From assembly GCA_964491475.1 (NCBI GenBank), contig CAZBFO010000003.1:208534-251292 (forward strand): 42,759 bases of DNA, read 5' to 3'. A program made the translations under genes and the position numbers. Under the pieces are notes generated by a model that saw nothing but the letters and a program-made list of their open reading frames with translations, did no database searches and had not been told where the DNA came from. This stretch comes from an uncultured Gammaproteobacteria bacterium (GTDB taxonomy: Bacteria; Patescibacteriota; Patescibacteriia; SG8-24). Below, piece by piece: positions 11,772-14,398 of the stretch (positions are counted from its first letter, which is position 1; each line of letters opens with the position of its first letter).

Positions 11772-13430
11772 ATGTCCGCTTTGCTCTTCCGCGACGTCAC
11801 CGCAGAGCTCGAAAAGTTCCTGGAGAACGAAATCGGGAGCGTGTTCTGCGTCCCTTGGCTGTACGGCGAAAAGGCCGTCGCGGCCCTGACGGCGGCTGGT
11901 CTTGCCCACCATCGGTTGAAGGTGGCAATGCACCAGTTCGTCATCGACGCCCTCTGCATCACCTACCGTGATGCGGGAAATGCGCGCCTCGACGAGGCCA
12001 TCACCTGCGTCTACGGCGGCAAGCGAGAAGTTGCCATGTCGATGCCTTGCATCGGCGAGCGCCAGTTTCATCCGCTGCTCCTGCCCAAGGAAGCAGACGT
12101 CAGGATTTACGAGTCGCTGGCAAAGCCGGTGGACGCCGCTTCGAGAACGCTCGAGCAGACGGCCATCGGCCAATACCGCAAGCTGCTCGAGACGCTGTCG
12201 CGCATCACCGGACGTCCGGTGCGGTTTTATGCCGAGACCAGCGGCATGCGCCAGCCGATCTGGCAGGAGCCGGAGGCGCTGCACCTGATCACGAACTCGT
12301 GTCCTCCGGGATACGGCTCGGCGCGTTACGTGCAGACGGTCTTCGGTCGGCTCATCCATGCAAAGGGGCACGAAGAGATCGCCTGGGGTCCCACTCCGGG
12401 ACGCGGCACAGTCCTCAAGGACGAGGACGGGCAGCCGACGGTGCAGATGCTTGGCAACACCTGGTACCTGCTTGTCCCGACCATCAGCACCTACCACGCG
12501 CAGAACAGCGTGGCCATCTTCGAACGCCTCCTCGGCCAGGCATGGGCGGCGCACCTGGCGCCGGCTCCTGCCGAAGCGGAGGAGGCTTCGTCGGAATCGT
12601 TCGGCAATCTCCTCACGAGCTGGGTCGACGATGCGGCCGACTTGATGGCCGCCGACGTGCGCAAGGCAGAGGAACGGATAGCGAAGCTGCAGGAAGGCCT
12701 GGTCGCCGCGCACCGGAACCTGAAGGACCTGCGGCACTTCGTGCGGCTGGCGGCCAATCCGACGGTGGATCGCGAGAGGCGCAAGCGCGCCAAGGAAGAC
12801 TGGGAGGCCGTCAAGGCCAATCCGCTGGTGAAGGGACTGACCTTCGCGGATGACGGCATCCACGTGGAGACCGTCCCCATTCATCTTTCGCAGGACGGGC
12901 AGGCGTACGACCTGGGCACCTTCACGGTGCGCCTGGCGGCCAAGGGCCAGATTTCGATCTGGTGCGAGAAGCCCAAGCAGTACAAGGGCTATCCGCACCC
13001 GCACATCAACGATGTCGGGCATCCCTGCTTCGGCAACGCCGGCACGGCCATCACGCAGGCGATGGGGGAGATGCGCTTCGCGGACGCGGTGCGCTACATG
13101 CTCCGTTGGCTGACGGAGGGCTACACCCCGGCGCTGACCGAGATCAAGCTCGAGACCTGGCCGCGCGTCGGCGAATCGGACGAAGCCTACGGCAAACGCA
13201 TGGGCTTGCATCAGATTGACGACCCGGACATCAAGGAACGGCGGATGACCGACGCGGAAGCGGCAGTCTGGAAGGTCGCCGTCGAGATGATTGGCACCAT
13301 GCAGAAGGACCCGAAACTGGACGCGATTCTGGCCGATCCGCCGGGCTTCGTCGAAGCGCCGGAAACGCCGGAGGCGTCCGTCGAAGAAAAGGAAGAGGAG
13401 AAGAACGATGACGCATCCGCTCAACCTTGA
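11772..13430 (+). CDS. Large protein: unknown N-terminal region, coiled coil, and E2/UBC-like domain
   Basis: SD AGGAGGA at 11761; coiled coil DVRKAEERIAKLQEGLVAAHRNLKDL; YPHPHINDVGHPCFGN resembles the E2 HPNI..G.ICL signature (Cys codon 13026-13028). Confidence 0.7.
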   Translation: MSALLFRDVTAELEKFLENEIGSVFCVPWLYGEKAVAALTAAGLAHHRLKVAMHQFVIDALCITYRDAGNARLDEAITCVYGGKREVAMSMPCIGERQFHPLLLPKEADVRIYESLAKPVDAASRTLEQTAIGQYRKLLETLSRITGRPVRFYAETSGMRQPIWQEPEALHLITNSCPPGYGSARYVQTVFGRLIHAKGHEEIAWGPTPGRGTVLKDEDGQPTVQMLGNTWYLLVPTISTYHAQNSVAIFERLLGQAWAAHLAPAPAEAEEASSESFGNLLTSWVDDAADLMAADVRKAEERIAKLQEGLVAAHRNLKDLRHFVRLAANPTVDRERRKRAKEDWEAVKANPLVKGLTFADDGIHVETVPIHLSQDGQAYDLGTFTVRLAAKGQISIWCEKPKQYKGYPHPHINDVGHPCFGNAGTAITQAMGEMRFADAVRYMLRWLTEGYTPALTEIKLETWPRVGESDEAYGKRMGLHQIDDPDIKERRMTDAEAAVWKVAVEMIGTMQKDPKLDAILADPPGFVEAPETPEASVEEKEEEKNDDASAQP

Positions 13431-14061
13431 TCAGCAGAGCAATCTGGTCGATCCGCGCAAGACCCAGCCGGTCACCGTCATCGGTGCCGGTTCGGTCGGC
13501 AGTTGGCTGGTGCTGAACCTGGCATCGGTCGGCTGCGAGGACATCACCGTCTGGGACGCCGACGACGTCGAATCCCACAACGTGCCGATGTCCGCGTACG
13601 GACGGGAAGACCTGGGCAAGCTGAAAGTGCGCGCCCTGGCCGAGCTGATCGAGCGCAAGACGGGCGTGCGCATCACGCCGGTCGAACGCATGTACGCCGG
13701 CGAGCCGCTGAACGGCTCGGTGGCCTGCTGCGTGGACTGGATGGACGAGCGCAAGAAGATCTGGGAGCGCGTCCGCGACAACCCCAACGTCGAGGTGTTC
13801 GTGGACACGCGCGTCGCCGAGGAGTTCGTGGCCGTCTACGGCTTCAACCCCTGCGACCCCGAGTCGGTGAGGCATTACGACAAGCTGCTGTATCCGAACG
13901 GAGAGGCGCTTCGGCCGATGTGCGGCAGCCACGGGATCATCTACGTGGCCCAGCACGCGGCCAACGCGGCCTGCGTTTGCTTGACAGCCGCCTGGTCCGG
14001 GAGTAGAAAGGAGCGGCACTATCGGATGCACATGGGCAATCTCGCCCAGGTCGTTCCGTAG
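13408..14061 (+). CDS. ThiF/MoeB/E1-like adenylyltransferase
   Basis: VIGAGSVGS, VWDADDVESHN, LGKLKV and CCVD..DER motifs, and PMCG crossover-loop Cys (13921-13923); SD GAGGAG; overlaps the upstream ORF by 23 nt. Confidence 0.88.
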   Translation: MTHPLNLDQQSNLVDPRKTQPVTVIGAGSVGSWLVLNLASVGCEDITVWDADDVESHNVPMSAYGREDLGKLKVRALAELIERKTGVRITPVERMYAGEPLNGSVACCVDWMDERKKIWERVRDNPNVEVFVDTRVAEEFVAVYGFNPCDPESVRHYDKLLYPNGEALRPMCGSHGIIYVAQHAANAACVCLTAAWSGSRKERHYRMHMGNLAQVVP

Positions 14062-14091
14062 AGCCCCACCCACCGTACGCCGGAGGAGCAG

Positions 14092-14349
14092 ATGAGTCGA
14101 AAGAACAAACGCAACAAGAAACCCGCGCAAACCAAGACCGCGACCCTCAAGGTCACGCCCGTGCAGGGCGAGGCGACCGAGACGGCCGTCCAGGTCGCCA
14201 AGGGTTCGACCGTCGGGAGCGCCCTCCAGCAGGCGGGCATCTCCACGGAGCGGAAGAACGTCACCGTCGACGGCAAGCCCGCGGACCTCGACGCGCCGCT
14301 GGCCGCCGGACAGACGGTCAACGTCGAGGAACGTCCGCAAGGTTCCTGA
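14092..14349 (+). CDS. Ubiquitin-like beta-grasp protein (ThiS/MoaD/Ubl fold)
   Basis: VAKGSTVGSALQQAGI, VTVDGKPADLDAPLAAGQTVNV pattern; ends EERPQGS; SD GGAGGA. Confidence 0.8.
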   Translation: MSRKNKRNKKPAQTKTATLKVTPVQGEATETAVQVAKGSTVGSALQQAGISTERKNVTVDGKPADLDAPLAAGQTVNVEERPQGS

Positions 14350-14367
14350 CTCATCCTGCTTCGATGC

Positions 14368-14398
14368 AGCCGACTCGATTGAGTCGGCTTTTTCTTTT
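14368..14398 (+). terminator. Terminator of the Ubl operon
   Basis: AGCCGACTC-GATT-GAGTCGGCT plus TTTTCTTTT. Confidence 0.85.

Follow-up and report, generated by a model that had tools for sequence, protein, structure and literature searches.

A three-gene operon from an uncultured bacterium and its relatives that probably encodes a ubiquitin-like conjugation module

Three co-oriented genes lie together in a 42,759-nucleotide (nt) stretch of DNA (hereafter the window; GC ~64%) from an uncultured bacterium labelled "uncultured Gammaproteobacteria" in its source and placed in the Patescibacteriota by GTDB (contig CAZBFO010000003.1, positions 208,534 to 251,292). They encode a large protein with a candidate ubiquitin-conjugating (E2) domain (gene 1), a compact enzyme of the ThiF or ubiquitin-activating (E1) type (gene 2), and a small ubiquitin-like protein (Ubl; gene 3), and together they probably make up a ubiquitin-like conjugation module that is self-contained, has three components and belongs to a previously undescribed family (Table 1). 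An earlier reading of the DNA without database searches (the sequence-only reading) had described these genes, each with a Shine–Dalgarno sequence, ahead of one terminator; our open reading frame (ORF) reading and terminator scan bear this out, and the motifs quoted in that reading for genes 1 and 2 all lie at the residues it gave. The reading frames of genes 1 and 2 overlap by 23 nt, the start of gene 2 lying within the end of gene 1, which suggests translational coupling. The terminator scan also placed the terminator of the upstream gene at 11645-11667, so that terminators stand both before and after the operon and bracket it as a self-contained unit. The single promoter-like element of the sequence-only reading can be read in the 94-nt gap 3' of that upstream terminator, but it is weak and fell below the pass level of a sigma-70 scan. 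An inverted repeat (ccgtcc...ggacgg, 11713-11736) in the 5' untranslated region, between this element and the Shine–Dalgarno sequence of gene 1, could be an operator or leader structure.

Table 1. Features of the operon in the window, and position of the four-gene relatives on their own contigs
Feature	Position	Strand	Description
Weak promoter-like element	11683-11711	+	TTGAAC-17-TACGTT
Gene 1	11772-13430	+	552 amino acids (aa), ATG start; AGGAGG at 11760-11765
Gene 1 N-terminal alpha/beta region	11772-12557	+	residues 1-262; AlphaFold2 model and alignment
Gene 1 long helical, coiled-coil-like linker	12591-12818	+	residues 274-349; helices 274-306, 310-327 and 330-349 in model
Gene 1 candidate ubiquitin-conjugating-like (UBC-like) domain	12819-13181	+	residues 350-470; profile alignments to E2s
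Gene 1 motif HPHINDVGHPCFGN	12996-13037	+	residues 409-422; Cys419 codon 13026-13028; proposed counterpart of E2 HPN-x7-Cys
Gene 2	13408-14061	+	217 aa; GAGGAG 7 nt upstream
Gene 2 GAGSVG motif	13483-13500	+	residues 26-31
Gene 2 DADDVESHN motif			residues 50-58
Gene 2 PMCG motif	13921-13923	+	position of the Cys172 codon
Gene 3	14092-14349	+	85 aa; GGAGGAG at 14082-14088
Gene 3 C-terminal tail	14329-14346	+	ERPQGS
Intrinsic terminator closing the operon	14368-14398	+	9-bp stem at 14368-14389, 6 G-C pairs, then TTTTCTTTTG, a T run (terminator scan)
Four-gene cousin	L031:1860-5696
Four-gene cousin	L032:1694-5681
Four-gene cousin	L033:898-5373
Four-gene cousin	L035:312-4269

Relatives were sought in genomes using a 20-sequence E1 alignment, and the order of the three genes is identical at every one of 18 distinct chromosomal loci (the window, L001, L003, L004, L006, L008, L011, L013-L022 and L034). 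The source labels of these loci comprise Candidatus Binatia, Uhrbacteria (four loci), Patescibacteria, "uncultured Gammaproteobacteria" and unclassified metagenome-assembled genomes (MAGs), and one of the loci lies on a 1.19-Mb contig. Synteny of the homologs, which the sequence-only reading had set beforehand as a condition of its interpretation along with conservation of Cys419 in gene 1, was thus observed at 18 of 18 loci, and Cys419 proved invariant in 122 homologs. Neither a JAMM homolog nor a JAMM motif was found in the window or the 17 related loci scanned, and clustering of all neighbours at 17 loci yielded no fourth gene that recurs across lineages.

Gene 2 matched the Pfam ThiF model at 47.5 bits (cutoff 28.1; E = 1.6e-12), in line with its earlier assignment as an E1. 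Aligned to E. coli ThiF with hhalign (97.3%, 152 columns), the gene 2 family places Cys172 on ThiF Cys184, the crossover-loop cysteine, in a ThiF sequence that was entered by hand. We found 98 homologs of ~215 aa, and in the 65 that were aligned, residues V22, G26, G28, D50, D52, N58, K73, D110, R115, R135, Y157 and C172 are invariant. The features expected of an adenylation domain (GxGxxG, an Asp-rich ATP/Mg site and DxxxxR) are all present, along with the invariant crossover-loop cysteine, whereas the C-terminal CxxC zinc site of ThiF and MoeB is absent from gene 2 on direct reading of its sequence. When compared to the PDB, the family profile matched UBA5 best (1e-11), followed by TcdA, PaaA, ThiF, MccB, UBA3, Cap2 and BubCD, with the similarity confined to the generic Rossmann half. 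The best NCBIfam and PADLOC matches of gene 2 were likewise to the Rossmann region of the E1 part of Cap2-type proteins, far below cutoffs (NCBIfam cap2_3, 45 vs a cutoff of 320 bits over ~70 Rossmann residues), the NCBIfam ThiF equivalog scores were also far below cutoffs, and a match to phrog_15670 was obtained. Within the compact-E1 family, Pro-Met-Ser takes the place of the Arg-Gln of SNLxRQ, and an invariant arginine, Arg135, stands elsewhere in a DTR motif; the phosphate-binding site may thus be rearranged.

Gene 3 is a predicted SAMP2/ThiS-like beta-grasp protein. As a single sequence it gave sub-threshold Pfam matches to SAMP2, Ub-Mut7C, ThiS and RnfH, while a 17-sequence family profile matched two structures of SAMP2, 1rws and 5lda (E = 6e-6), and also RnfH (0.004), which upholds the beta-grasp pattern seen in the sequence-only reading; among the 17 family members, Pfam recognised SAMP2 in nine and Ub-Mut7C in seven. 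The N-terminal tail of the protein is basic. Its C-terminus carries a feature absent from the sequence-only reading, namely that the family ends in E-R-P-x-G-S-COOH, with Glu80 and Ser85 invariant and Arg81 and Gly84 present in at least 90% of members. Ser is the last residue in every one of 73 relatives (90% identity clustering) and is preceded by Gly in 71 of them; a final Gly or a longer extension was seen in none. The C-terminal Gly (usually Gly-Gly) of Ubl modifiers is therefore missing from this family, and the activation chemistry, if the protein is activated, would depart from the textbook scheme.

Gene 1 had no family match in Pfam, NCBIfam, PADLOC, PHROG or PDB sequences. A word-index homology search returned two homologs, both syntenic. 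With an exhaustive profile search the number of cluster representatives was 1024 at a threshold of E<=1e-3 and 139 at one of E<=1e-30, and most of them are 450-500 aa long; the family occurs in Uhrbacteria and other Patescibacteria MAGs and is common in MAGs of the candidate phyla radiation (CPR). Nearly all of 152 sequences examined (the best 150 matches of the exhaustive search plus P0002 and P0003) contain the motif HPH[ILVM]-x3-G-x2-C. In a 122-sequence alignment, whose members share 18-68% identity with gene 1, H409, H411, C419, G421 and Y451 are invariant and P410 (121/122), W397, W446, L447, W463 and P464 nearly so. Given this invariance across divergent homologs (n = 122 for gene 1, n = 65 for gene 2), the motifs of both proteins are not due to chance.

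AlphaFold2 modelling of gene 1 from three sequences was unusable (predicted local distance difference test, pLDDT, 38), whereas the 122-sequence alignment gave a model with a pLDDT of 86.9 and a predicted template-modelling score of 0.81. The N-terminal region of this model comprises a ferredoxin-like subdomain (residues ~20-115) and a conserved subdomain (~120-262) with P178, G180, G210, G212 and Q225, and the family alignment displayed no conserved catalytic nucleophile in residues 1-262; we propose that this region may act as a target- or partner-binding module. Beyond the helical linker, in residues 350-470, six short strands are followed by the HPH...C loop and, after it, by helices, and the protein ends in an acidic, lineage-specific tail. 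When compared to BFVD with Foldseek, the gene 1 model matched best to unnamed viral proteins of 420-540 aa with accessions A0A516* (E 2.7e-4 to 0.03; probability up to 1.0, template-modelling score <0.25).

Several lines of evidence point to an E2-like nature of the C-terminal domain of gene 1. When a profile built from 52 sequences (residues 328-472) was run on PDB sequences, 10 of its 12 weak matches were E2s (best UBE2L3, E = 0.075). These E2s are collinear with the domain from helix alpha-1, with which the model helix 330-349 aligns, up to the catalytic Cys; HPH falls on HPN, and the two cysteines coincide. Against six human E2s, hhalign gave 87.2% (E = 3.9e-6, 86 columns), compared to 0.1% for the reversed control and to column-shuffled scores of 11.9+-2.4 (max 18.6) vs 40.4 for the real alignment; a single E2 gave 46.7%, and E2s align over 82-86 columns. 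Among the 52 members, the only relevant Pfam hints were UQ_con (two members) and Prok-E2_B (one member). The HPN-x7-C spacing of E2s is preserved as H409-P-H411-x7-C419, and the order of secondary-structure elements in the model is compatible with a UBC fold. We consider this domain UBC-like with moderate confidence.

The most divergent E1 relatives (35-40% identity) provide a comparison for the tail of the Ubl. They were detected in four-gene sets on contigs L031, L032, L033 and L035/L036, which are rich in small ORFs; genes for a DnaB helicase and a primase lie next to these sets. The E1 of these cousins belongs to the gene 2 family (E = 1e-81). Their E2 homolog (442-461 aa; motif HPHVDG...C) matched the hidden Markov models (HMMs) of the gene 1 family (E = 1e-20) and of the E2 domain (E = 4e-16) and carries a C-terminal Cys-rich extension. 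The gene 1-family HMM covers it from position 238 onward, with the N-terminal region replaced; because cousins match only from the coiled coil onward, the N-terminal region of gene 1 appears to be a swappable module. The cousin Ubl is a poly-Ubl of 207-225 aa with three tandem beta-grasp repeats, each matching the Ubl profile and each ending in ...VKGN, and the residues after this Asn are variable or absent. The remaining gene encodes a protein of 329-364 aa with the motif E...HSH-x7-S-x2-D, which Pfam did not recognise; hhalign aligned it to Rpn11 at 87.7%, and all 16 of its weak PDB matches were JAMM enzymes.

More distant versions occur in large phages, where the genes, beside replication genes, stand in the order Ubl (ending in DGG-RQ or in SGG plus an extension), ~420-450-aa protein, JAMM protein, compact E1. 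On IMG/VR contigs L024-L030 (5668-8669 in L024) the Ubl ends in DGG-RQ and the second protein has 452 aa, again together with a JAMM protein and an E1, and gp53-gp50 of Flavobacterium phage FpV4 (L037, NC_041872.1) follow the same pattern, with the E1 annotated as "thiamine biosynthesis protein" ThiF. The phage-type E1 gave matches in 73 records of GenBank phages, among them phages of Flavobacterium, Bacteroides and Xanthomonas, and a tblastn search of GenBank phages and PLSDB plasmids with gene 1 and its phage-like homolog returned no match. On contig L023 (6862-8831), a 374-aa ORF with the motif HxH-x7-S-x2-D has just downstream of it a distantly related ThiF gene (38% identity over 74 residues), a JAB-E1 pairing of a different type that is probably known already.

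Across these systems, a JAMM protein is present where the Ubl is a poly-Ubl or an extended precursor, and absent where a monomeric Ubl ends exactly at Gly-Ser. Because the JAMM protein tracks such precursors and is missing alongside Gly-Ser monomers, the simplest inference is that Gly-Ser (or Gly-Asn) may be the mature, activated end of the Ubl. If this is right, the E1 would activate a terminal Ser, or Asn in the cousins, rather than a Gly. A JAB peptidase would also be dispensable, because the Ubl would be made with its mature end while the cousins, which encode triple polyproteins, carry a JAMM protein.

From these observations we infer thioester transfer and protein conjugation by the operon. 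In the mechanism that we propose, the compact E1, probably a homodimer like ThiF, MoeB and UBA5, would adenylate the C-terminal carboxylate of the Ubl, which would then pass to Cys172 as a thioester or go directly from the adenylate to the E2. It would next be carried on Cys419 of the 552-aa protein, whose variable N-terminal alpha/beta domain and coiled coil would choose the acceptor, so that this protein may act as an E2/E3 hybrid that links the Ubl by an isopeptide bond to a target or to the hybrid itself. The Ubl, if translated with its mature end, would need no JAB peptidase at any step.

A number of points weigh against this interpretation. The Asn position of HPN is a His in 122 of 122 gene 1 members, the hhalign match to E2s ends two residues past the Cys, which leaves the helical half of the UBC fold unsupported by it, and the E2 and ThiF sequences used with hhalign were entered by hand, UBE2L3 alone being partly checked against a HMMER alignment. 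A Foldseek search of the PDB with the confident full-length model of gene 1 returned nothing significant, with no E2 among the top 50, and the support for a UBC-like fold is hence one of sequence profiles only. The UBC fold proposed in the sequence-only reading is thus supported in part, by profile evidence that is weak but consistent. The Arg of SNLxRQ is missing from the E1 family, whose consensus reads SHNxPMS, and we know of no characterised E1 that activates a terminal Ser for conjugation.

Among other explanations, the one that survives best is a Bil-type anti-phage defence, with the same biochemistry, in which the Ubl would be ligated to phage proteins upon infection. Phage defence is the role of all characterised bacterial E1/E2 systems, namely type II CBASS (the cyclic oligonucleotide-based anti-phage signalling system), Bil and probably Bub (PMC11601596), and both the location of the closest cousins on phage- or plasmid-like contigs and the E1 match to phrog_15670 are consistent with it. 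However, gene 1 and the Ubl match no PADLOC model, no regulator of the CapW or CapH/CapP type was seen, and the operon is retained in small CPR genomes. In loci with annotated flanks, the neighbours are housekeeping genes (a thiamine pyrophosphate (TPP) enzyme, aldehyde dehydrogenase, GTP cyclohydrolase II, a tRNA synthetase and phosphoribosyl pyrophosphate synthetase). The clade of the window also shares an upstream endonuclease/exonuclease/phosphatase gene and a TPP-enzyme gene down to 52% E1 identity, and flanks that remain syntenic over this range indicate vertical inheritance. An anti-phage role, raised as a possibility in the sequence-only reading, thus finds no support in the genomic context and seems unlikely to us; what the context favours, rather than a mobile island of defence genes, is a chromosomal function that is passed on vertically and serves regulation or proteostasis.

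An alternative that we regard as improbable is that the operon does not conjugate proteins at all: the E1 would adenylate the Ubl tail to carry or build a small molecule, either as a thiocarboxylate (as with ThiS and MoaD) or by MccB/PaaA-type chemistry on the Ser, with the large protein serving as a scaffold or accessory enzyme. A terminal residue other than Gly would suit such a role, the best PDB relatives of the E1 include the non-conjugating E1-like enzymes PaaA, MccB and TcdA, and some sources label relatives as ThiS or ThiF. Those PDB similarities, however, span the generic Rossmann half only, and the invariant partner of the E1 has an E2-type HPx-x7-Cys motif. Moreover, the combination of poly-Ubl and JAMM peptidase in the cousins is a hallmark of conjugation systems, and a rhodanese, cysteine desulfurase, ThiG, MoaE or other biosynthetic partner was found in none of the loci. 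The absence of a JAB peptidase and of adjacent thi, moa or cys genes, both claimed in the sequence-only reading, was confirmed by the scans of the window and the related loci.

Least probable is a reading of the HPH...C motif of gene 1 as a hydrolase centre of the metal or Cys-His kind, which would trim the terminal Ser and expose the Gly to the E1, placing the missing peptidase inside gene 1: the spacing of H-x-H-x7-C-x2-N is identical to that of JAMM (H-x-H-x7-S-x2-D), 115 of 122 members have an extra His at 403, Foldseek reported no E2 fold and only one residue follows the Gly of the Ubl, but hhalign gave 0.2% against the Rpn11 MPN domain with the motif unaligned whereas E2s do align, neither the Pfam searches of the 52 members nor the PDB profile searches of the domain returned any JAB/MPN family, the protein of the window has Gln at 403, the model has only helices past the Cys, as in E2s and unlike MPN domains, in the cousins this HPH-C domain occurs next to a true JAMM protein encoded by a gene of its own, and a removable cap would be unlikely to remain invariant in 73 of 73 relatives. 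On these alignments and searches we rejected the JAMM-like reading of the motif.

A conjugation-like operon is of a kind already known from Bil, CBASS and Bub, while the predicted E2-like domain is new to the Pfam, NCBIfam, PADLOC and PHROG releases used; literature searches found no description of the gene family. With Bil (BilABCD, types I/II; class 6d), the operon shares separate Ubl, E2 and E1 genes, a catalytic Cys in both E1 and E2 (predicted ones here), and an E2 that, with no E3, is presumed to select the target, and the phage-like cousins share the Ubl-E2-JAB-E1 content. In contrast to Bil, the operon has no JAB gene, its E1 has a single domain of 217 aa rather than the tandem domains of BilD, its E2-like protein is 552 aa long with N-terminal domains, its Ubl ends in Gly-Ser, and the PADLOC Bil models miss gene 1 and the Ubl. 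Class 6d E2s also lack the His of HPN, which the gene 1 family retains (PMC1779556). Type II CBASS Cap2/Cap3 (class 6a/6b) resembles the operon in its Cys-based chemistry and in the E1 domain of Cap2, the best NCBIfam/PADLOC match of gene 2. Cap2, however, is an E2-E1 fusion that conjugates the CD-NTase (cGAS/DncV-like nucleotidyltransferase) itself without a Ubl and is paired with the JAB protein Cap3, whereas the genes here are separate and a CD-NTase is absent.

Bub (class 6E/DUF6527) is likewise a bacterial E1/E2/Ubl operon, often without JAB (type II) and in some cases with a poly-Ubl. Its E1 and E2 have no catalytic Cys and use Tyr and Ser oxyesters, it always includes the DUF6527 serine protease BubE, and it has Ubl-E2 or E2-E1 fusions (PMC11601596), whereas both Cys are invariant here, fusions are absent and no neighbour matched DUF6527. 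The layout thus differs from Bil and Cap2, as the sequence-only reading had stated, and from Bub too. Membership in Bil, Cap2 and Bub was rejected in each case on defining features, and the operon fits none of classes 6a-6e of Iyer et al. 2006 (PMC1779556). Membership in PRTRC was also rejected (TIGR03736 at 28.1 vs a cutoff of 144.75 bits, with genes 1 and 3 missed by the PRTRC models).

Outside of these bacterial systems, archaeal SAMP2/UbaA sampylation, ThiS-ThiF and MoaD-MoeB are alike in that the Ubl is closest to SAMP2 and the E1 is single-domain, of ThiF size, with its Cys at the ThiF Cys184 position. Unlike the present operon, with its obligatory E2-like partner and its Gly-Ser tail, their Ubls end in Gly-Gly, need no E2 and are tied to sulfur-transfer or cofactor genes. 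The eukaryotic trio UFM1-UBA5-UFC1 also bears a likeness to the operon. UBA5, the top PDB match of the E1 family, is an E1 reduced to a single domain, the HPN region of UFC1, a small E2 that stands alone and works with an E3 complex, is non-canonical, and the UFM1 precursor has a short extension after its Gly that UfSP proteases cut off before activation. The sequence relationship shown here between the UFM1 system and the operon is that of the shared superfamily, and we treat the likeness as a lead only.

The surroundings of the operon in the window include genes for aldehyde dehydrogenase, GTP cyclohydrolase II, aspartokinase, homoserine and aspartate-semialdehyde dehydrogenases, HtrA and a CCA-adding enzyme, so that the window carries genes of amino-acid and cofactor metabolism; no thi, moa, cys or recognisable defence genes were seen near the operon. 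Given these biosynthetic genes and the GC content of ~64%, the window probably does not belong to a CPR genome. A convergent gene (14445-15581, minus strand, 378 aa) with a Pfam AAA_28 match and an N-terminal region that appeared CYTH-like by eye only shares the terminator region with the operon, and is a conserved neighbour in the window's own clade only (L001, L004, L014). Long ORFs without a Pfam match lie at 32828-36505 (minus strand) or 33158-36466 (plus strand), a pair of 1100-1225 aa whose coding strand is ambiguous, and at 19971-21443 (plus strand) and 29240-30448 (minus strand).

Bacterial ubiquitination-like pathways (type II CBASS, Bil and Bub) have been characterised only recently, and all are tied to phage defence and a dedicated peptidase. 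If the operon is indeed a conjugation module, it would be the smallest complete set so far, with a 217-aa E1, one E2-like protein, one Ubl and no deubiquitinase, and its E2 would have a eukaryote-like His-Pro-x/Cys site unlike that of other bacterial E2-like families. The invariant C-terminal Ser of the Ubl would then challenge the rule that E1s activate a terminal Gly. The phage-borne version with poly-Ubl and JAMM offers a natural comparison, which could explain why a peptidase is needed in some of these systems and lost in others. It is a real, if tentative, possibility that the operon represents a further independent lineage of prokaryotic ubiquitination-like systems, with a non-glycine C-terminus (Gly-Ser/Gly-Asn), a 217-aa E1 and an E2/E3 hybrid with a His-Pro-x...Cys site, whose vertical inheritance, including in reduced CPR genomes, would suggest housekeeping tagging. 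Overall, the syntenic, housekeeping-linked retention of the operon in uncultured lineages, including CPR, hints at a form of protein tagging in bacteria that serves purposes other than defence.

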